A stretch of 64,000 bases of DNA from Gammaproteobacteria bacterium. Lineage in GTDB: Bacteria > Pseudomonadota > Gammaproteobacteria > CAJXQU01. The stretch spans positions 1,147,705 to 1,211,704 of the forward strand of contig CBDDAG010000001.1 of assembly GCA_965224825.1 (NCBI GenBank). Reading direction: 5' to 3'. A model generated the notes under the pieces. The model saw nothing but the letters and a program-made list of their open reading frames with translations. It was not told where the DNA came from and made no database searches. Of this stretch, positions 7,277 through 16,091 are shown piece by piece (the stretch's first letter is position 1; each line of letters begins with the position of its first letter). A program made the position numbers and the translations under genes.

Positions 7277-8145
7277 TTTTCGATTTTGCCGAGTTGTTGT
7301 TTGCCAGAATAATCACGTGCAAAATGCCATGCTGATCGGCCACTTCTTGATCCATGTAACAACGCCCACTTTAATGCTTCTTTTTGCATTCTTTTCTGAT
7401 CAGCCAGATCAACATTCAATTCTTTTAACCAATGATCAACAATGCTCAAATACGCATCTTGATTGAAAGGATGAAAAGCCAGCCATAAACCGAATCGTTC
7501 CGAGAGCGAGATTTTTTCTTCTACGGCTTCACCATAATGGATCTCGGTATCGATCAGCTGTGCGTCGGCATTATCTTTTTCATATTCCGGTAAAAGATGT
7601 CGGCGATTAGAGCTGGCGTAAACAAGGATGTTTTCCGGTGTGCTGTTGATCGATCCATCGAGGACCACTTTGAGTGATTTGTAACTTGCGTCGTCCGCTT
7701 CAAAAGAAAGATCATCACAGAAAATAATAAACTTTTCCGGACGATCATAAAGTTGTTCGGCAATGTCTGGCAGTTCTTCGAGATGACGTTTTTCAACTTC
7801 GATCAGTCGTAATCCCTGATCAGAATATTCATTCAGGATTGCTTTGATCAGCGAAGATTTTCCGGTGCCGCGTGGTCCCCAGAGCAGGGCATTATTTGCA
7901 GGCAGTCCATATACAAATTGGCGAGTATTTTGATCCAGTTGTTGTTTCTGATTTTCAATACATTGAAGATCGGAAAGATTAACTGTCGAGATCCGCGGAA
8001 CGGTCTGAAGATAACCCTGTCTTCCATTATGTCGCCAACGAAAAGCTACAGGTCCTTCCCAATCAGTTTCGGCCGGAATCGGCGGGATCAGTTGCTCCAG
8101 CCGATCCAGAAATTGATGTGCTCGATCAAGCAGTGCCTTATCCAT
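7273..8145 (-). CDS. DUF815 family AAA+ ATPase
   Basis: ANNALLWGPRGTGKSS, FCDDLSF, YASSNRRHLLPE, EKISLSERFGLW. Confidence 0.9.
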   Translation of the reverse strand: MDKALLDRAHQFLDRLEQLIPPIPAETDWEGPVAFRWRHNGRQGYLQTVPRISTVNLSDLQCIENQKQQLDQNTRQFVYGLPANNALLWGPRGTGKSSLIKAILNEYSDQGLRLIEVEKRHLEELPDIAEQLYDRPEKFIIFCDDLSFEADDASYKSLKVVLDGSINSTPENILVYASSNRRHLLPEYEKDNADAQLIDTEIHYGEAVEEKISLSERFGLWLAFHPFNQDAYLSIVDHWLKELNVDLADQKRMQKEALKWALLHGSRSGRSAWHFARDYSGKQQLGKIEK

Positions 8146-8155
8146 CTTCCGAAAC

Positions 8156-9493
8156 TTAGTGGAACTTCAATCTTCTACGAGGTTTACGTGTCAGACGGTT
8201 CGCAAGGGCATGTAGAAATGTACCGAAATATCCATGCAGTGCAACCAGATGCATTTTGTAGAGTGACTTATAAATGAATCTTGCCATCAGACCCTCGATC
8301 ATGACGCTGCCACTCCACTTGCCCAGCAAATTACCCATCATGTTACCGACGGTTGTGTAAGAACTCAGGTTCACCAGTGAGCCGTAATCCACATATGTGT
8401 ATTCTGGTAGATCAAGATCGCCTTTCAAACGTCGCTTCATAGTCTTAACTAACATGGAAGCTTGTTGGTGAGCAGACTGGGCTCTTGGTGGTACCATTTC
8501 TTCTGAACCCGGTTCAACTGGGCATTGGGCGCAATCAGCAAAGGCAAAGATATTATCATCGCGTGTGGTTTGTAGTGTTGATTTGACGACTAGCTGGTTG
8601 ATGTTATTGGTTTCCAGACCATCAATTTCTTTTAGAAAATCCGGTGCTTTGATACCCGCAGCCCAGACTTTGATTTCGGAAGCGATAAAATGACCTGCTT
8701 CAGTATGGAAACCATCAGCAGTTGCTTCGGTAATTCGTTCACCGGTTCTCACATCAATATCGATCTTGTGTAAGGCATCGACAGTCGCTTGTGATAAGCG
8801 TTCAGGGAGAGCCGGAAGTATAGTATCAGCAGCCTCGATTAAAGAGATTTTAAGATCACGATCAGCATTAATATTTTCCAGACCATAAGCAACCAGTTCA
8901 CGGGTAGATTCATGCAGTTCTGCCGAAAGCTCTACACCTGTGGCACCAGCACCTGCGATGGCTACATGTAGCTGGCCTTCACGTAATTCTGTGGTAGAAG
9001 TCTGTGCGCTGTAACATTTTTTCAGCAGCAGTGAGTGAAATTTTTCAGCCTGCTCACGGTTGTCCAAAGAGTAGCAATGTTCGGCTATACCTTTGATGCC
9101 GAAATCATTTGTTGTACTTCCCACAGCAATGATCAGTGTGTCATATTCAAAGCTTCGTCGCGGAATAAACTCCATGCCGTCGTCATCAACGGTTGGTGCG
9201 AGATTAACTTCGCGTTTTTCACGATCAAGGCCATCCATGCGACCAAGACGAAAACGGAAATTGTGCCAGTTAGCCTGTGCCAGGTATTCCAGATCATCAG
9301 CATGTGAATCCAGTGTGCCCGATGCGATTTCGTGTAGCAGCGGTTTCCAGATATGTGTCAGGGTGCTATCGATCAGTGTGATCTCGGCTTTCTTCTTTTT
9401 GCCGAACTTATTACCCAGACTGGTAGCCAGTTCAATACCTCCGGCGCCGCCGCCAACGATGACAATTTTATGAGGTGATGAGGTTTCGGACAT
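8156..9493 (-). CDS. ndh: Type II NADH dehydrogenase
   Basis: GGGAGG FAD site, GAGATGVEL NAD site, PPRAQSAHQQA; ATG 9493 chosen because GGAGAG precedes it. Confidence 0.93.
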   Translation of the reverse strand: MSETSSPHKIVIVGGGAGGIELATSLGNKFGKKKKAEITLIDSTLTHIWKPLLHEIASGTLDSHADDLEYLAQANWHNFRFRLGRMDGLDREKREVNLAPTVDDDGMEFIPRRSFEYDTLIIAVGSTTNDFGIKGIAEHCYSLDNREQAEKFHSLLLKKCYSAQTSTTELREGQLHVAIAGAGATGVELSAELHESTRELVAYGLENINADRDLKISLIEAADTILPALPERLSQATVDALHKIDIDVRTGERITEATADGFHTEAGHFIASEIKVWAAGIKAPDFLKEIDGLETNNINQLVVKSTLQTTRDDNIFAFADCAQCPVEPGSEEMVPPRAQSAHQQASMLVKTMKRRLKGDLDLPEYTYVDYGSLVNLSSYTTVGNMMGNLLGKWSGSVMIEGLMARFIYKSLYKMHLVALHGYFGTFLHALANRLTRKPRRRLKFH

Positions 9494-9572: not shown

Positions 9573-9878
9573 ATGAATAAACAAGAAACAATAGAACTTG
9601 AAGCGGCTGCATTTCGTCGATTGGTCGAACATTTCAATACGAGAACCGATGTGCAGAATATTGATCTGATGAATCTGGCAGGTTTTTGCCGGAATTGTTT
9701 GTCCAAATGGTATCTTGCTGCAGCGGAAGAGCGTGATCTGGAAATGGATTATGACAAGGCTCGGGAGATCGTTTACGGCATGCCATATAGTGAGTGGAAA
9801 GATAAATATCAAAAAGAAGCTTCTGCTGATCAAATGAAAGCGTTTGATGAGTCGATCAAGCAACACGATTCAAAATAG
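9573..9878 (+). CDS. DUF1244 family protein
   Basis: ELEAAAFRRLV, DVQNIDLMNLAGFCRNCL. Confidence 0.9.
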   Translation: MNKQETIELEAAAFRRLVEHFNTRTDVQNIDLMNLAGFCRNCLSKWYLAAAEERDLEMDYDKAREIVYGMPYSEWKDKYQKEASADQMKAFDESIKQHDSK

Positions 9879-9899: not shown

Positions 9900-10421
9900 A
9901 TGCGAGTGAGTTTATGGTTGTCAGTTTTGCTGACAGGGAGTGCTTTTGCCGCTGGCGTGGATATTGAGCGCTATGCCTATAAAAGTGAATTTCATCTGGC
10001 CTGTGAAAAGTCTGCATTAAATGTTCATGCCGGAAAGGTGCTAAAGGTTGAATTCAAGATTGATGACGATCAGCCTGTTTATGAGTTTGATATCCGGGCG
10101 GCAGATGGCGTTGACTGGGATGTGACGTGTGATGCCGATAAGAATGAGATTATCGAGATCGAACAAGAAGTTCCCAGCGTCAATCATCCACTTTTCCTAT
10201 CGAAAAAACATATTGATGAAAAACAGGCGAGAGCGATCGTGATGGATGCCTGGCCTGGCGATATTCTGGAAATCGAATATGAAATAGAACCCGATGGCGC
10301 AGCTTCCTACGAATTTGATATTCACACTTATAAAGGTGTGGATATGAAGGTCGAAGTGGATGCCAGCAGTGGTGACATCGTGGAGCAAAATGAAGAGCTG
10401 TGGCAAGAGGGCTATGAATAA
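9900..10421 (+). CDS. Periplasmic two-PepSY-domain protein, lanpepsy (LanP)-like
   Basis: Signal peptide (SAFA) and two PepSY repeats (VYEFDI..WDVTCDA / SYEFDI..KVEVDASSG); strongly acidic. Confidence 0.85.
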   Translation: MRVSLWLSVLLTGSAFAAGVDIERYAYKSEFHLACEKSALNVHAGKVLKVEFKIDDDQPVYEFDIRAADGVDWDVTCDADKNEIIEIEQEVPSVNHPLFLSKKHIDEKQARAIVMDAWPGDILEIEYEIEPDGAASYEFDIHTYKGVDMKVEVDASSGDIVEQNEELWQEGYE

Positions 10422-11790
10422 GCTTTTTACACTGTTGTCAGTTTTACTACTTTTATCGTCTTGTGCGGAATATCAAACTTATGAAGAGTCGCCGATTGAC
10501 GTCGAGCAAACCACTCGTGACTACCGATCTCAGGATCTTCATTCGCCGGAAGTAAAAAGCTGGCTGGATGAGTCTGATCAGGATGTGAGTGTCTGGCCAA
10601 AATCTCAGTGGGATCTTGAGAGCCTTGTGTTGGTTGGGCAATTATTCAGTAAGGATCTGGATGTTGCGAAGGCTAAAGTTAACGTTGCCAAAGCCGGAGA
10701 AATCACTGCAGGTCAAAAACTAAATCCGGAATTAGATCTTTCTACCGAACATCATAGCGATCAGTTTGATGGTATTTCTCCGTGGACATTTGGATCGATT
10801 TTTAGCTGGGTGTATCAACGCCCTGAAAAACGTCAGACAAGGATTGATCATGCCAAAGCGGTGACAGAAGTTGCGCGTTTGAAAGAGTTTGAGATCAGAT
10901 GGCAGATCCGTGATCGGATCATGGATAATTATCTGGATACGATGGCGGCGATCAGGAAAAAAGAAATGTTGCTTGTCGAAAAGGAAACTGTGCAGGAAGC
11001 GCTGGATCTGCTGGAACGAAGTCTTGAACTGGGGCAGGTGAGTGATTTCGAGATCAATTCAACGCGGCTGGAAATGCAGCGATTGATGTTGTCCTTGAGT
11101 GAAGTTGAAGCTGATCAGATCAGAGCAAGAACACGACTGGCGCTGGCGACAGGTTTAGCGGCGGATGGTTTGGATAATATTGATCTGGATCATCAATATT
11201 TCATGCAATTGCCTGATCTGGATTCTATTGATCTGGAGCTTGATTTATTACAGGTGCGAGCTTTGGTCGAGCGGCCAGATGTGTTGGGTGTTTTATCCGA
11301 ATATGTTGTTGCCGAGGCTGATCTTCATCATGAAATAGAAAACCAGTATCCTGACTTTAAGTTATCTCCGGGATTTATTTTTGATCAGGATGATAATATC
11401 TGGGCGCTGGCCGGCGCATGGGCTTTACCGATCAATGCAATAAATGAAGGACCGATCGCAGAAGCGGAAGCCAGACGTGAATTAAAGGCTCAGGAGTTTC
11501 TCGCCTTTCAGAAGGAAGTGCTTGGGCAGGTTCATGAAACGCGGATCAGATATCGATCAGCTCTGGATACACTTCAGGAGGCCGATGCTTTGATCAGTGA
11601 TCTTGAAGATCGTGATCAGAAAATTCAGAAGCAATATGATCATGGTTATACTGACCGACTAAGCATTATTAGAAGTCAGCTTGAGATTTTGACGGCTCGA
11701 CGATCACGTTTCCTGCTGGAATTAAATGCATGGAGAGAGTTCGCCGGAATGGAAGATGCTGCGATGAGAACGCTCTCAGAAGAAAAATAA
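10414..11790 (+). CDS. TolC-family outer-membrane efflux lipoprotein
   Basis: ATG 10414 overlaps the PepSY stop; lipobox LLSSC; OEP repeats (RPDV...AEADL...YPDF). Confidence 0.88.
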   Translation: MNKLFTLLSVLLLLSSCAEYQTYEESPIDVEQTTRDYRSQDLHSPEVKSWLDESDQDVSVWPKSQWDLESLVLVGQLFSKDLDVAKAKVNVAKAGEITAGQKLNPELDLSTEHHSDQFDGISPWTFGSIFSWVYQRPEKRQTRIDHAKAVTEVARLKEFEIRWQIRDRIMDNYLDTMAAIRKKEMLLVEKETVQEALDLLERSLELGQVSDFEINSTRLEMQRLMLSLSEVEADQIRARTRLALATGLAADGLDNIDLDHQYFMQLPDLDSIDLELDLLQVRALVERPDVLGVLSEYVVAEADLHHEIENQYPDFKLSPGFIFDQDDNIWALAGAWALPINAINEGPIAEAEARRELKAQEFLAFQKEVLGQVHETRIRYRSALDTLQEADALISDLEDRDQKIQKQYDHGYTDRLSIIRSQLEILTARRSRFLLELNAWREFAGMEDAAMRTLSEEK

Positions 11791-11794
11791 TAAT

Positions 11795-12937
11795 ATGAAA
11801 ACACTAATAAAAATCATTCTGCTCCTGATTCTCGTGGTGGCTGTTTTTGTTGGCGTGCGAACTTTTTCCGGTGATCAGGGATTTGTCGTTGCGCTTGATC
11901 AATGGCTGGATCAGTTTCAGGAACAGGAAGGTGAAGCCGAGCATGAAGATGATGATTCGGATGAAGACGAAGAAGATGACGATGATGTTCCATCACGGGT
12001 AGAAATCCACGAAGGTTTGCCCGCAGTAAGGTTGACTGACGAGATCATGTCCCGCAGTGGAATTCAGACCAGCTCACTGCAAGTTGTTTCACATTTACAT
12101 GAGGCGCGTGCGACAGGACTGGTGGTTGATTTTCAGCCCTTGCTCGGGAGGCGAACCGACTATCATAAAGCCGGATCTGATCTGATTCTTGCCGAAGAAA
12201 GTTTGCAGGCTTCGGCAAGAGTTTATGAACGTTTACGTGTATTGCACAAAGAGCGCGCCAATGTTTCTTTGCGACAGGTTGAAGAGGCTCGTTTTCGTAT
12301 GACAGAAAACAAGGCACGGAAAGTTTCAGCGGCACAGCTTATGCAAAATATTCGCACGGAAACCATGCAGAAATGGGGCAAAGAATTAAGCAACTGGGCA
12401 CTTGGATCAAAAGAAGCTGGTAAAGAACAAAGTAGTTATTTTGATCGCCTGTTACAAAAACAGGATGTTCTGATCATGGTGACGTTGCCACCGGATCTTA
12501 CCTTGCCTGAAGAGACAAGTTTTGTTTTCATCAACACACATCCCGAACGATCCACCTCAAGAAAAGCCTATCTGATCTCACCAGCTTCACATACAAATTT
12601 ATTGTCGCAAGGTGTGACTTACTACTTCAGAACGCCTGCAGAAAATATGCGTATTGGTATGCATTTGTCAGCCTGGGTGATCGTCTCCGATGAAGTCGAA
12701 ACCGGTGTCGATGTGCCGCCGGCTTCGGTGATCTGGTACGGTGGTCAGCCGTGGGTTTACGTTCAGGTGGAAGATGATCTTTATTCACGCCGCCCCGTTG
12801 CAGATTATCGTGAAACGGATTTCGGCTGGTTTATCACGGACACATTTGAACAGGATGAAAAGATCGTGATCCGTGGTGGTCAGCTACTACTTTCGGAAGA
12901 ATTAAGATGGCAGATCCCTGACGAGGACGACGACTAA
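11795..12937 (+). CDS. RND periplasmic adaptor (membrane fusion protein) with poly-acidic linker
   Basis: N-terminal TM, EQEGEAEHEDDDSDEDEEDDDD linker, VPPASVIWYGGQPWVYV, IVIRGGQLLLSEE, C-terminal IPDEDDD. Confidence 0.88.
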   Translation: MKTLIKIILLLILVVAVFVGVRTFSGDQGFVVALDQWLDQFQEQEGEAEHEDDDSDEDEEDDDDVPSRVEIHEGLPAVRLTDEIMSRSGIQTSSLQVVSHLHEARATGLVVDFQPLLGRRTDYHKAGSDLILAEESLQASARVYERLRVLHKERANVSLRQVEEARFRMTENKARKVSAAQLMQNIRTETMQKWGKELSNWALGSKEAGKEQSSYFDRLLQKQDVLIMVTLPPDLTLPEETSFVFINTHPERSTSRKAYLISPASHTNLLSQGVTYYFRTPAENMRIGMHLSAWVIVSDEVETGVDVPPASVIWYGGQPWVYVQVEDDLYSRRPVADYRETDFGWFITDTFEQDEKIVIRGGQLLLSEELRWQIPDEDDD

Positions 12938-12942
12938 AATTC

Positions 12943-15900
12943 ATGTTGTCCATCATCGTAAGATTTTCAGTTCGTTACTATGGCATTGTCATTGCTCTGT
13001 CAATCTTGCTACTGGCATACGGCGTATTTCGTTTGTCCAATGCCGGTCTGGATATTTTTCCGGAGTTTTCTCCTAAACAGGTCATTATTCAAACTGAGTC
13101 TCAGGGTTTCTCCGCCGAGCAGGTCGAGGTGCTTGTCACCCAGCCGATCGAAAGCGCGATCAGCGGATTGATCGGGCTGGATTATTTGCGATCAGAATCG
13201 ATTCAGGGCTTGTCGATCGTCACCGCCACTTTTGCTGAAGATACCGATATTTATCTAAACAGGCAGATGGTTAGCGAACGATTATCCAGTGTCGGAACGC
13301 TGTTGCCAGAAGGTGTTGGTACGCCCGTTCCTGTGCCACTGGCATCGTCTTCGGCCACCGTTCTGACCATTGGTGTGCGATCAGATTCCATGGACATGAT
13401 GGAGTTGCGAAGCATTGTTGACTGGACGATTGTGCCGCAGGTTTTGAGCGTCAGTGGTGTTGCTGATGTGAATGTGTTTGGTGGTGAGATCAAACAATTA
13501 CAGATCCAGATCAAGCCGGAAAAATTACGTCGTTATGGACTTGGAATTGCGGAAGTGATCGAAGCAGCGAGCCAATCCACTGCGATCAAAGGTGCTGGTT
13601 TTATCGAGAACGATAATCAACGTTTTACCATTCAAACTAGTGGTGATGCAGCGACTCCAGAAGATATTGGCAAGGTTGTGATCAAACGTGAAAATGGTCA
13701 CTCAATCCAGATCTCGGATGTGGCTGATGTGCTCATGGCGCCAGAGCCACGTATTGGAGCAGCGGCGATTATGGGTAAACCGGCAATCGTCATGATGGTG
13801 ATTGGTCAGTACGGCGCGAACACGCTGAATGTTTCAACCTCAGTCGAAGAGGTGCTGGCAGATCTGGAAGCGGTATTCGACAAGCAGGATATTGAATTCT
13901 ATTCGCACCTATTTCGTCCCGCAGACTACATCGAACGATCACTGAAAAACATCACCGAACATCTGTTCATTGGTGGTGCTTTTGTTTTGATCATTTTGTA
14001 TGTTTTTCTATTCAATATTCGCACGGCTTTTATCTCCGCACTGGCAATTCCTCTTTCGCTGGTTAGTGCTGCACTGGTATTACTGGAAAGCGGAGTAAAT
14101 TTAAACATCATGGTACTCGGCGGACTCGGGATCGCGTTGGGTGAGGTGGTCGATGATGCGATCATCGATACGGAAAATATCTATCGACGGCTGAGAGAAA
14201 ATCGATTACTGCCTGTGCCGAAATCTATTTCAGATGTGGTTTATGAAGCGTCGATGGAAGTACGTGGATCAGTTGTTTATGCCAGCTTTATTGTTGCTCT
14301 TGTTTTTGTTCCATTGCTCACGCTTGGCGGAGTTGCCGGACGTTTGTTTTCGCCATTGGGCGTGTCCTACATTCTGGCGATCCTGACTTCATTGCTGGTC
14401 GCTTTAACGGTCACTCCGGCTCTTTGTTATTTGTTATTAGGCAATAGAAAATTACCTGAAAATGATCCGCCGTTGATCAGATTGATCCATCCGATCTATG
14501 CAGGTTTTTTAAGAATAACCGCAAGGTTACCAACCTTGACGATCGGAGCAACCTTACTTTTTTGCGTAGCCGGAATCGCGATTATTCCGAGTCTTGGATC
14601 ACGTTTCCTGCCAGAGTTACGCGAAGGACATTACATCGTTCATACAACAGCAATGCCGGGAACTTCTCTGGAACAATCGATTCAGGCCGGCAATAAACTG
14701 ACCAAGGAATTCCTAAAAATACCGGGTGTCCGATCAGTCTCACAATGGGCGGGTAGGGCAGAGCGATCTGCCGACACTTATGGAAGTCATTACAGCGAAT
14801 TTGAAGTTGATCTGGATACACTCTCCGGTAGCGAACAACAGGAAGTGATCGATGGTTTAAGAGAAGTGCTGAAAGCATTTCCCGGATTATTATTCGAAGC
14901 GAATACCTTTCTGATCGAACGTGTCGATGAAACCATCTCCGGCTACACATCGCCGGTAGTGGTCAATCTTTATGGTAACGAACTTGGCTTTCTTGATCGA
15001 AAAGCACAGGCACTAGCGGAGATCATGCGATCAATCGATGGAGCTACCGATGTACAAATGCGATCATCACATGGCACGCCAGTTTTGCAAGTACGATTAA
15101 AACATGATCGCTTGAACAGTTTGGGCTTACGACCGGTAGAAGTCATGGACGCGATCCAGATCGCCTACGAAGGAAAAGTCGTTGGCAAAAGTTATCAGGG
15201 TAATCGTCTTTATGATGTCAGCGTGATCATCGAGCCCGAGTTGCGTAACAACCCGGAAGATCTGGCAAAACTACCATTAAAAACACCCGATGGCTTAACC
15301 GTTCCTTTGACAGAAGTTGCTACGATTCTACAAGTAGACGGACGCTACAATATTCTCCATCAAGGTGCTCAACGAATTCAAACCGTTACCTGTAATGTGC
15401 GTGATCGCGACATGGGAGGTTTCGTTAAAGAACTGAAATCCCGCGTCCTGAATGAAATTGAATTTGAAGCGGGGGCATATCCCGAATTCACCGGCGCAGC
15501 GATAGAGCAGGCCAAAGCCAGAGAAGATCTGATCTTACATTCACTGGTCGCTGCAATTGGTGTACTGATTTTGATCTACATGGCCGTAGGCAGAGTGCGG
15601 TATGTCGTGATCATGTTACTCAACCTGCCATTCTCACTGGTCGGCGGCGTAATTGCGGTGCTACTAACCGGAGCAACCTTATCCGTCGGATCAATGGTCG
15701 GCTTCGTCACCCTGTTCGGAATCACTGTCAGAAACTCAATCATGCTGATCTCGCATTATCGTTATCTGGTGGAAGAAGAAAACTTGCCCTGGAATATTGA
15801 AACCTTGATCAGGGGAGCCAAAGAACGCCTACCATCCATCCTGATGACAGCATTGGTGACGGCTCTTGCTATGTTACCGATAGCAATCGATAGCGATAAT

Positions 15901-16053
15901 CCCGGACGGGAAATTATGGGGCCAATGGCAGCGATCATTATTGGTGGTATGGCTTCTTCAACTATTCTTAATTTATTGATCTTACCGAGTATTATGTTTC
16001 ATTTTGGTGGGTTTGATTCTGAAAAGAAATCTAAAATTACCCAGACTGAATAA
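12943..16053 (+). CDS. CusA/CzcA-type heavy-metal RND transporter
   Basis: 1036 aa; LDIFPEF, GEVVDDAIIDTEN (TM4), ERLPSILMTAL, GREIMGPMA. Confidence 0.95.
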   Translation: MLSIIVRFSVRYYGIVIALSILLLAYGVFRLSNAGLDIFPEFSPKQVIIQTESQGFSAEQVEVLVTQPIESAISGLIGLDYLRSESIQGLSIVTATFAEDTDIYLNRQMVSERLSSVGTLLPEGVGTPVPVPLASSSATVLTIGVRSDSMDMMELRSIVDWTIVPQVLSVSGVADVNVFGGEIKQLQIQIKPEKLRRYGLGIAEVIEAASQSTAIKGAGFIENDNQRFTIQTSGDAATPEDIGKVVIKRENGHSIQISDVADVLMAPEPRIGAAAIMGKPAIVMMVIGQYGANTLNVSTSVEEVLADLEAVFDKQDIEFYSHLFRPADYIERSLKNITEHLFIGGAFVLIILYVFLFNIRTAFISALAIPLSLVSAALVLLESGVNLNIMVLGGLGIALGEVVDDAIIDTENIYRRLRENRLLPVPKSISDVVYEASMEVRGSVVYASFIVALVFVPLLTLGGVAGRLFSPLGVSYILAILTSLLVALTVTPALCYLLLGNRKLPENDPPLIRLIHPIYAGFLRITARLPTLTIGATLLFCVAGIAIIPSLGSRFLPELREGHYIVHTTAMPGTSLEQSIQAGNKLTKEFLKIPGVRSVSQWAGRAERSADTYGSHYSEFEVDLDTLSGSEQQEVIDGLREVLKAFPGLLFEANTFLIERVDETISGYTSPVVVNLYGNELGFLDRKAQALAEIMRSIDGATDVQMRSSHGTPVLQVRLKHDRLNSLGLRPVEVMDAIQIAYEGKVVGKSYQGNRLYDVSVIIEPELRNNPEDLAKLPLKTPDGLTVPLTEVATILQVDGRYNILHQGAQRIQTVTCNVRDRDMGGFVKELKSRVLNEIEFEAGAYPEFTGAAIEQAKAREDLILHSLVAAIGVLILIYMAVGRVRYVVIMLLNLPFSLVGGVIAVLLTGATLSVGSMVGFVTLFGITVRNSIMLISHYRYLVEEENLPWNIETLIRGAKERLPSILMTALVTALAMLPIAIDSDNPGREIMGPMAAIIIGGMASSTILNLLILPSIMFHFGGFDSEKKSKITQTE

Positions 16054-16091
16054 TCGGTCGAACCTGACCTAATTGGTTTCAGCAGCGATAA

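Follow-up and report, generated by a model that had tools for sequence, protein, structure and literature searches.

A lanpepsy gene in one operon with a CusA-family RND pump: a candidate lanthanide efflux system in a gammaproteobacterium

Periplasmic chaperones of the CusF type are a textbook component of heavy-metal efflux (HME) pumps of the resistance-nodulation-division (RND) family. Lanpepsy (LanP; Mfla_0908 of Methylobacillus flagellatus) is among the few known non-enzymatic lanthanide-binding proteins and is selective in vitro for trivalent lanthanides (Ln3+) over Ca2+ and Fe3+ (PMC9988556). The M. flagellatus proteins induced by La3+ include LanP and Mfla_1632, a CusA-family RND pump whose operon also encodes the TolC-type protein Mfla_1630 and the adaptor Mfla_1631; induction was ninefold for Mfla_1632 and sixfold for Mfla_1631, the methionine triad of CusA is replaced in Mfla_1632 by His/Tyr/Glu, and the system was proposed to export either excess Ln3+ or a lanthanophore (PMC9988556). 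The lanP knockout is described without a phenotype (PMC9988556). The protein is under development for rare-earth separation, and PDB entries 9VY3-9VYA are apo and lanthanide-bound crystal structures of M. flagellatus lanpepsy (10.1101/2025.10.21.683075). Here, a four-gene operon was analysed at positions 9900 to 16053 (+ strand) of a 64,000-nt stretch of the genome of a marine, methanol-using gammaproteobacterium (GenBank assembly GCA_965224825.1, contig CBDDAG010000001.1, positions 1,147,705 to 1,211,704). The whole stretch is called the window, and coordinates refer to it unless another locus is named. The operon joins a lanP gene to a probable orthologue of the only efflux pump reported as La-induced, and so would bring two proteomic hits together in one testable machine.

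The four genes run head to tail in the open reading frame (ORF) list and encode a PepSY protein (lanP, 9900..10421), an outer membrane factor (OMF; 10414..11790), an adaptor of the membrane fusion protein (MFP) type (11795..12937) and an RND inner-membrane pump (12943..16053). lanP and the OMF gene overlap by 8 bp; gaps of 4 nt (OMF/adaptor) and 5 nt (adaptor/RND) follow. This tight coupling had been described in a first-pass annotation, made from the DNA letters and the ORF list, and was borne out. The OMF ORF spans 10360-11790. Given the resemblance of MNKLFTLLSVLLLLSSC to a lipoprotein signal, its likely start was placed at M19 (10414), and the 8-bp overlap with lanP follows from this placement; such an overlap suggests translational coupling. 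Counted from M19, the OMF has 458 aa and is a TolC/NodT-type lipoprotein, with PF02321 in two stretches (67.6 bits, cut-off 22) and a lipobox, LLSSC, located by eye. Against TIGR01845 it scored 36.5 bits, below the cut-off of 210.

The lanP product (173 aa) is probably secreted and is very acidic, with a pI of 4.27 for the mature protein. Its N-terminus, MRVSLWLSVLLTGSAFA/AG, reads by eye as a signal peptide (approximately residues 1-17), and residues 1-20 have a low predicted local distance difference test score (pLDDT). PF03413 (PepSY) was matched in two stretches (E 4.8e-16). A phmmer search of PDB sequences returned one strong match, lanpepsy chain 9vy3_A (E 1.9e-45), over 139 ungapped residues corresponding to chain residues 14-152 of 153. 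These values place the window protein inside the filter used for the LanP family, at least 85% coverage and E of at most 1e-20 against Mfla_0908 (PMC9988556). Bridging ligands named for lanpepsy are D54, E68, E106, E108, E118 and E132, with K29, K33 and K130 as stabilising residues (10.1101/2025.10.21.683075). The chain index of 9vy3_A equals the preprint numbering, and window LanP residues are numbered 20 higher, which gives D74, E88, E126, E128, E138, E152, K49, K53 and K150. All nine of these residues, the six named bridging ligands (of 19 ligands overall) and the three lysines, are present in window LanP and are invariant in 20/20 homologues. The Cys pair C35/C77 is likewise invariant (20/20 and 35/35 aligned homologues). 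Identity to the copy of M. flagellatus strain A12 is 54% over residues 35-173, and 24 of the 32 Asp/Glu residues of the A12 LanP segment remain acidic in window LanP.

The AlphaFold2 (AF2) model of LanP (pLDDT 91.9) consists of two helix + four-strand units. Foldseek of this model against the PDB returned 4EXR, YpmB and UipA; the 9VY entries were not among the matches returned from that library (to 2026-04-08). The LanP family comprises 1622 clusters at E of at most 1e-10, and the window genome holds a single lanP copy. Judged by the 9vy3_A match and the conserved ligand residues, the PepSY protein is a true LanP relative. The first-pass annotation had pointed to such a likeness from sequence motifs and had called the protein secreted, acidic, equipped with two PepSY domains and a Cys pair; the domain search, pI and alignments bear out the acidity, the two domains and the Cys pair.

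The RND protein (1036 aa) matched PF00873 (ACR_tran; E 4e-230). Its best NCBIfam model was TIGR00914 (CusA/CzcA) at 680.3 bits, under the cut-off of 701.45, and the next model scored 467.5; multidrug models reached 468 bits or less. Among solved pumps, ZneA (4k0e, 402 bits, E 4e-119) and CusA (388 bits) scored highest, with drug- and siderophore-type RNDs at 245 bits or less. In M. flagellatus A12 the best match has 52% identity (1150 bits; runner-up 33%, 520 bits) and sits in an OMF-MFP-RND operon. In the RND tree the window pump lies inside a methylotroph clade (Shimodaira-Hasegawa-like approximate likelihood ratio test, SH-aLRT, 99). By this tree and a one-way search from the window RND, the pump is an orthologue of the La3+-induced Mfla_1632.

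As the first-pass annotation had read by eye, the CusA triad Met573/Met623/Met672 is missing. HMMER was used to align the RND with CusA chain 3t51_A, whose Met 580/630/679 are native CusA 573/623/672 by an offset of 7; in the window pump these positions are taken by His567 (14641..14643), Tyr617 (14791..14793) and Glu663 (14929..14931), the last within RVDETISG. His/Tyr/Glu was found in 11/11 aligned RND orthologues, M. flagellatus included. The motif of transmembrane helix 4 (TM4), GLGIALGEVVDDAIIDTEN (14122..14178, residues 394-412), holds five carboxylates; it is common to 14 methylotroph-type sequences, bar substitutions at its residues 2, 3, 5 and 17. The form GL(G/A)IALGEVVDDAIID(T/S)EN is common to the 11 orthologues, bar substitutions at three positions. 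Paralogues have ..G(L)(M/I)VDG(S/A)V.VVEN at this place instead, and the four HME paralogues compared differ from the window pump in both the triad site and the TM4 motif. Of the sequences sampled, 14 make up the full-signature subclade, and each was taken from a genome that bears LanP or that lies in the window's genus. The pump had also been called acid-rich. This was rejected on the net charge of its two periplasmic loops (-18 and -12), which falls within the -6 to -19 of four unrelated HME paralogues; the acidic features lie in the adaptor tails, the RND TM4 motif and Glu663.

No Pfam match was obtained for the adaptor (380 aa), and against TIGR01730 it scored 32.3 bits, below the cut-off of 94.9. 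It was recognised from its AF2 fold (pLDDT 85.8) as a membrane-anchored, periplasmic protein with a long helical hairpin at residues 114-194. Foldseek matched the model to AcrA, ZneB, MexA and CusB at probability 1.0, with TM-scores of ~0.3, as expected of hinged multi-domain chains. The Asp/Glu tract EAEHEDDDSDEDEEDDDD (11933..11986, residues 47-64) lies between the N-terminal anchor helices and the PSR motif and is predicted to be disordered (pLDDT <50 at residues 47-61); the chain ends in the acidic tail DEDDD (12920..12934). The first-pass annotation had picked out both elements, and both recur in orthologues. The tract stands at the same place in full-length orthologue adaptors, being long in gammaproteobacterial adaptors and short in those of Methylophilaceae, including M. 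flagellatus. The C-terminal motif LLLSEE..QI.(D/E/N)E(D/N)(D/E)D is kept in 11/11 aligned orthologues, and the clade adaptors share the membrane anchor, the acidic tract before the PSR motif and the acidic C-terminal tail. One orthologue, from a Piscirickettsiaceae metagenome-assembled genome (MAG; L007), was excluded from the comparison of the tract. Its adaptor ORF starts late (315 aa) and is without the anchor and the acidic tract, and ~340 bp (L007:9876-10216) are unassigned 3' of its OMF gene; a frameshift, an assembly error or an alternative start may account for this.

To survey the linkage of lanP to the pump, each species was represented by one genome and scanned with an alignment; this yielded relatives where a single-protein scan of the genome contigs had yielded none. 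A total of 296 LanP loci were confirmed and 80 were kept, so that the counts describe a sample. The synteny that the first-pass annotation had proposed to look for, same-strand lanP-OMF-MFP-RND, recurred in 8/80 loci, all from other species. It is complete in six (L002, L004-L007, L025) and interrupted by contig ends in two (L003, L065). The carriers are members of the window's genus, Methylophaga and Piscirickettsiaceae MAGs and an isolate, Methylohalomonas lacus HMT 1 (L025), a cultured strain; with the window, the arrangement is kept across nine species. In the LanP tree (quick search) a single branch (SH-aLRT 89) separates the linked LanPs and the window's from all others; linkage is, as far as this tree goes, confined to one LanP subclade.

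The window's GTDB order consists of a single genus with 7 genomes. All 7 carry the pump (80-89% identity), and LanP was found in 5. In three genomes (G007, G008, G010) the site reads NDH-2, DUF1244, OMF, MFP, RND, with 76-115 bp in lanP's place. The linked pump L006 is basal in the RND tree to the lanP-less and the other linked pumps, and the absence of lanP would therefore be a derived loss, which may have taken one or two events. Outside the linked group, a His/Tyr/Glu pump orthologue was present in 8/9 tested genomes with unlinked lanP (two Methylobacillus, Methylophaga OBS4, Methylophilus, Methylomicrobium, Methylotenera, Methylobacter and a Gemmatimonadetes MAG). The pump appears from these comparisons to be the conserved core of the system and LanP an accessory open to loss.

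Two side observations concern these loci. In two genomes of the window's genus there is a further, divergent LanP-like gene with 40-42% identity to window lanP (L103, G007:C34; L104, G009:C1:1598769-1599278); its product groups with a copy from a Rhodospirillaceae MAG (flagged as a long-branch join), outside the pump-linked and receptor-linked clades. In Methylophaga sp. OBS4 (L091, G003:C9), the orthologous MFP-RND pair has no OMF gene upstream and a porin-like gene lies on the opposite strand; the channel for this pair must therefore be borrowed from elsewhere.

A complex of LanP (residues 18-173) and the adaptor (residues 24-380) was modelled with separate alignments. The interface score (ipSAE) was 0.80, 0.76 and 0.79 in three runs, against 0.27 for the best control. 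The ipSAE mark used was reached by 58/80 solved complexes and 2/110 mismatched pairs, in a calibration that used other alignments. The runs shared at least 83% of their contacts, and both partners had a pLDDT of at least 88. On the adaptor side the predicted interface comprises the beta-barrel and the membrane-proximal part (residues 211-215, 238-259, 283-306 and others); on the LanP side it comprises the inter-domain loop 92-97 and strand edges. The model, a step that had been suggested in the first-pass annotation, supports binding of LanP to the adaptor and does not show it. In five lanP-linked orthologues, 14-20 of the 24 adaptor interface positions are identical to those of the window adaptor, a share like that over its remaining positions (63-78%). 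Just 3-7 of the 24 are identical in the three same-genus pumps without lanP, against 54-60% for the rest of the adaptor (Fisher p 5e-5 to 3e-3), and the RND proteins there are 83-85% identical. The docking patch thus seems, from these alignments, to have decayed specifically where lanP was lost.

A TonB-dependent receptor (Plug + barrel) is the commonest neighbour of the 72 unlinked lanP genes; in 25 of these loci the receptor gene immediately precedes lanP in the same orientation, at gaps of 30-227 bp (within L010-L074; for example L046:5553-7862, with lanP at 8001-8420). All 25 receptor-linked loci come from Methylophaga-type genomes and form the sister group of the pump-linked clade, which suggests import-side work for this LanP clade. 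The window genome encodes two pyrroloquinoline quinone (PQQ) methanol/ethanol dehydrogenases above the TIGR03075 cut-off (regions G000:C1:248422-255568 and G000:C1:898315-899979), both with WDYDG, which we take to be the XoxF-type signature. No MxaF-type copy was seen in the PQQ dehydrogenase search of this genome. Co-occurrence with xoxF, raised by the first-pass annotation, is therefore seen insofar as this signature holds. Next to one of the XoxF-type genes lie two TonB-dependent receptor genes in tandem, whose products are 43-49% identical to the receptor that is linked to LanP in Methylophaga.

More distant relatives of the pump (45-51% RND identity) are carried on plasmids of non-methylotrophs, namely Rhodanobacter, Acidithiobacillus caldus, Burkholderia, Bradyrhizobium, Caulobacter, Acetobacter and others, with two-component systems, a P-type ATPase or a cation transporter as neighbours. 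The RND family as a whole is therefore not lanthanide-specific. Among these plasmid pumps, the Tyr of His/Tyr/Glu is kept by Rhodanobacter only, and the adaptors are without the long acidic tract. On plasmids of Rhodanobacter (L110), Acetobacter (L111) and Burkholderia contaminans (L112), all acid-tolerant or soil hosts, OMF-MFP-RND cassettes were observed; their neighbours include a 1257-aa HAD-IC P-type ATPase and a small cation transporter, and the His/x/Glu site is partly shared.

The best reading of the operon, and one towards which we lean by a little, is that LanP serves as a CusF-like Ln3+ chaperone that feeds a lanthanide exporter. The order of the genes, the homologies to LanP and to the La-induced pump, the conserved ligand residues and the pattern across genomes are shown; we infer which substrate is carried, which way it is handed over and what the acidic tails do. 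The products would form a four-component envelope exporter for Ln3+ on a CusCFBA-like plan with carboxylate chemistry. Periplasmic LanP would bind several Ln3+ ions in its acidic beta-barrel, and loaded LanP would dock on the beta-barrel and membrane-proximal part of the anchored adaptor. The ions would pass to the RND pump, in whose entry site His/Tyr/Glu replace the CusA Met triad and whose TM4 proton relay has additional carboxylates; the adaptor's disordered Asp/Glu tails may aid the transfer. Ln3+ would then leave the cell through the OMF, and the role of the system would be periplasmic detoxification or homeostasis of Ln3+. As a wider and tentative idea, to which we give somewhat less than an even chance, LanP may be a periplasmic lanthanide shuttle that has been wired to either side, to TonB-receptor import in one clade and to RND export in its sister clade.

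The chaperone function had been proposed in the first-pass annotation. Homology, synteny and the complex model speak for it, and several observations weigh against it, beginning with the limitation of linkage to one subclade. No pump relative lies within 8 kb in 72/80 LanP loci (at one, L054, there is merely an unrelated RND of 24% identity nearby), and the losses of lanP may amount to one or two events only. Within the window's genus, 3/7 genomes carry the pump without an adjoining lanP, two of them without any LanP, and in Zoogloea LanP is present and no pump orthologue was found in the genome. The receptor-linked LanP clade has an import context, and the wider RND clade occurs on plasmids of non-methylotrophs. 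M. flagellatus strains from which Mfla_1632 or lanP had been deleted showed no growth phenotype beyond wild type with La3+ (PMC9988556).

Some of the contrary evidence concerns the predicted contact and the regulation. The predicted interface does not involve the acidic tract of the adaptor. Over the full alignments it is not more conserved than the rest of the chains (LanP 0.61 vs 0.66, adaptor 0.33 vs 0.49), no clear contrast between linked and unlinked proteins was seen on the LanP side, and the distant linked L025 keeps 5/24 interface positions. The decay of the patch is to be read with two cautions: the three lanP-less genomes are kin, and surface residues evolve faster anyway. No regulator gene adjoins the operon in the window ORF list. 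Matches to the sigma-54 consensus in the window numbered 30 against 34.6 expected, none of them upstream of lanP, and a sigma-70 scan of the window was at chance (13 sites vs 12 +/- 4), its sole site near lanP abutting the lanP start codon.

Three other explanations were weighed. Another hard cation (Ca2+, Al3+, Fe3+ or an actinyl) might be the main substrate, with LanP acting as a general acidic metal buffer. The plasmid RNDs of acid-tolerant or metal-exposed non-methylotrophs would fit this, as would the persistence of the pump in genomes without LanP and the binding of uranyl and Fe3+ by the PepSY protein UipA (cited in PMC9988556). However, LanP is Ln3+-selective over Ca2+ and Fe3+ and the M. 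flagellatus pump orthologue is La3+-induced (PMC9988556), His/Tyr/Glu occurs among the plasmid pumps in Rhodanobacter only, the adaptors of the plasmid pumps are without the long acidic tract, and the full-signature subclade is limited to LanP-bearing genomes or the window's genus; we therefore regard a different hard cation as improbable, and place it first among the three. A pump for a lanthanophore, another organic chelator or a Ln-chelate, adjoined by lanP as both serve acquisition, receives less weight than either of the other two. It is one of the two options named for Mfla_1630-1632, and the M. flagellatus knockouts are described without La3+ sensitivity (PMC9988556); most Methylophaga-type lanP genes follow a TonB-dependent receptor, which points to acquisition. 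Yet by ZneA and CusA bit scores and by TIGR00914 the RND is nearest to HME pumps, a cation would be a fitting substrate for the conserved carboxylate tails on the adaptor and the acidic motif in TM4, the operon's neighbours include no biosynthetic genes, and the complex model docks LanP on the adaptor.

The genes might also be adjacent without any hand-over, LanP buffering or sensing periplasmic Ln3+ alone and the arrangement reflecting no more than shared regulation or an insertion that happened by chance where the site allowed it. Genomes of one genus differ in whether the DUF1244/OMF junction holds lanP, so the pump works without lanP; the interface shows no extra conservation over the full alignments, and an unrelated 358-residue protein, the strongest control with LanP, still gave 0.27 and 47 confident contacts. 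Against mere adjacency stand the 8-bp overlap, which suggests translational coupling, the retention of the arrangement across nine species, a complex score that exceeds the best control by 0.52 and the apparent decay of the docking patch specifically where lanP was lost. This explanation is likewise improbable in our view and ranks between the other two. The chaperone-fed lanthanide exporter thus remains the reading that we prefer.

Neighbouring genes are housekeeping-like. A gene of the DUF1244 family (9573..9878, + strand; PF06844, E 1.3e-38) ends 21 nt upstream of lanP, with an NDH-2 gene upstream on the other strand; downstream lie cold-shock and LolD-like ABC ATPase genes, both named by reading translations. 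The DUF1244 gene is also upstream in L002, L003 and L006, stands ~1.1 kb away in L025 and L065, and is upstream in the lanP-less loci L100-L102 as well. Its product has a conserved GFCRNCLSKW motif, and its position is kept with or without lanP. We treat it as a conserved neighbour that is possibly co-transcribed with lanP and do not claim it as a functional part. Directly after the RND stop codon a weak terminator-like hairpin was found (16056..16069, + strand; a consensus match only); terminator consensus sites in the window numbered 11, against 6.1 +/- 2.4 in shuffles.

Publications already describe LanP, its structure and the La-induced pump. In the literature available as open full text, nothing was found on an operonic fusion of lanP with a pump, on a LanP-adaptor contact, on a pump-linked LanP subclade or on a receptor-linked sister clade. 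No paper there joins lanpepsy with CusF, and phrases for efflux of lanthanides or rare-earth elements gave one incidental, unrelated match. A survey of the methanotroph lanthanome (PMC12482762) makes no mention of RND, TolC or synteny. The first-pass annotation knew of no characterized system so arranged; this stands for the link between lanP and the pump, which was not found in print, and not for the pump itself, for which Mfla_1630-1632 is a precedent. What appears new, from genome comparison and modelling, is the lanP-pump operon, the pump-linked LanP subclade, its receptor-linked sister clade and the predicted LanP-adaptor contact. A lanthanide exporter has not been demonstrated so far in the full-text literature, and the window pump is a candidate for the first. 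A partner surface is named for it, and sister species that lost lanP offer natural controls. If the shuttle idea is true, no earlier efflux system for trivalent f-element ions would have had a metallochaperone of its own, and LanP would gain a physiological role. The operon, if its role is confirmed, would show how lanthanide users limit periplasmic lanthanides, and might show a discard of heavy lanthanides that cannot be used.

Among described proteins, M. flagellatus LanP (Mfla_0908) is the closest to window LanP: both are of ~19 kDa and have two PepSY domains, the Cys pair and the named ligands and lysines; M. flagellatus LanP is secreted, as the window protein probably is. In contrast to the window gene, M. 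flagellatus lanP (L057) has no OMF, MFP or RND gene within 8 kb. Window LanP belongs to the separate, pump-linked subclade; the stretch N-terminal to C35 is longer in it, and its residues at surface positions 66, 92, 100, 125, 142 and 144 are different. The pump resembles Mfla_1630-1632 in its OMF-MFP-RND order, 52% RND identity, His/Tyr/Glu, TM4 motif and acidic adaptor ends; the M. flagellatus operon differs in having no lanP and a shorter acidic tract in the adaptor. A sigma-54 promoter is reported for Mfla_1630-1632 (PMC9988556), whereas no sigma-54 match lies upstream of window lanP. UipA of Microbacterium (7ATH) is, like LanP, an acidic PepSY fold that binds hard cations, and was returned by Foldseek at rank 5 with probability 0.85. 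We know of no pump linkage for UipA. The likeness is weak (14% identity), and UipA is a membrane-anchored, domain-swapped dimer (PMC9988556).

Among metal pumps, ZneCAB and CzcCBA supply the best solved RND match (ZneA) and one of the best adaptor fold matches (ZneB, 3lnn). Relative to CzcA-type pumps, the window RND falls below the curated family cut-off (680 vs 701) and its TM4 motif differs from that of a CzcA-type paralogue. To our knowledge no periplasmic binding protein is encoded in ZneCAB or CzcCBA operons. CusCFBA and SilCFBA share with the window the plan of four components: an HME-type RND, an adaptor, an OMF and a small periplasmic metal binder (CusF or SilF) encoded in the operon. 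CusB has a flexible, metal-ligand-rich N-terminal segment that parallels the acidic tract of the window adaptor, and a chaperone-adaptor contact is predicted here by the model. The window RND is ~30% identical to CusA by estimate (388 bits) and has His/Tyr/Glu, not the Met triad; overall, the window system has carboxylate ligands rather than Met/His, and its adaptor is membrane-anchored. The PepSY fold of the putative chaperone is unrelated to CusF, and the gene order is chaperone-C-B-A here and C-F-B-A in Cus.

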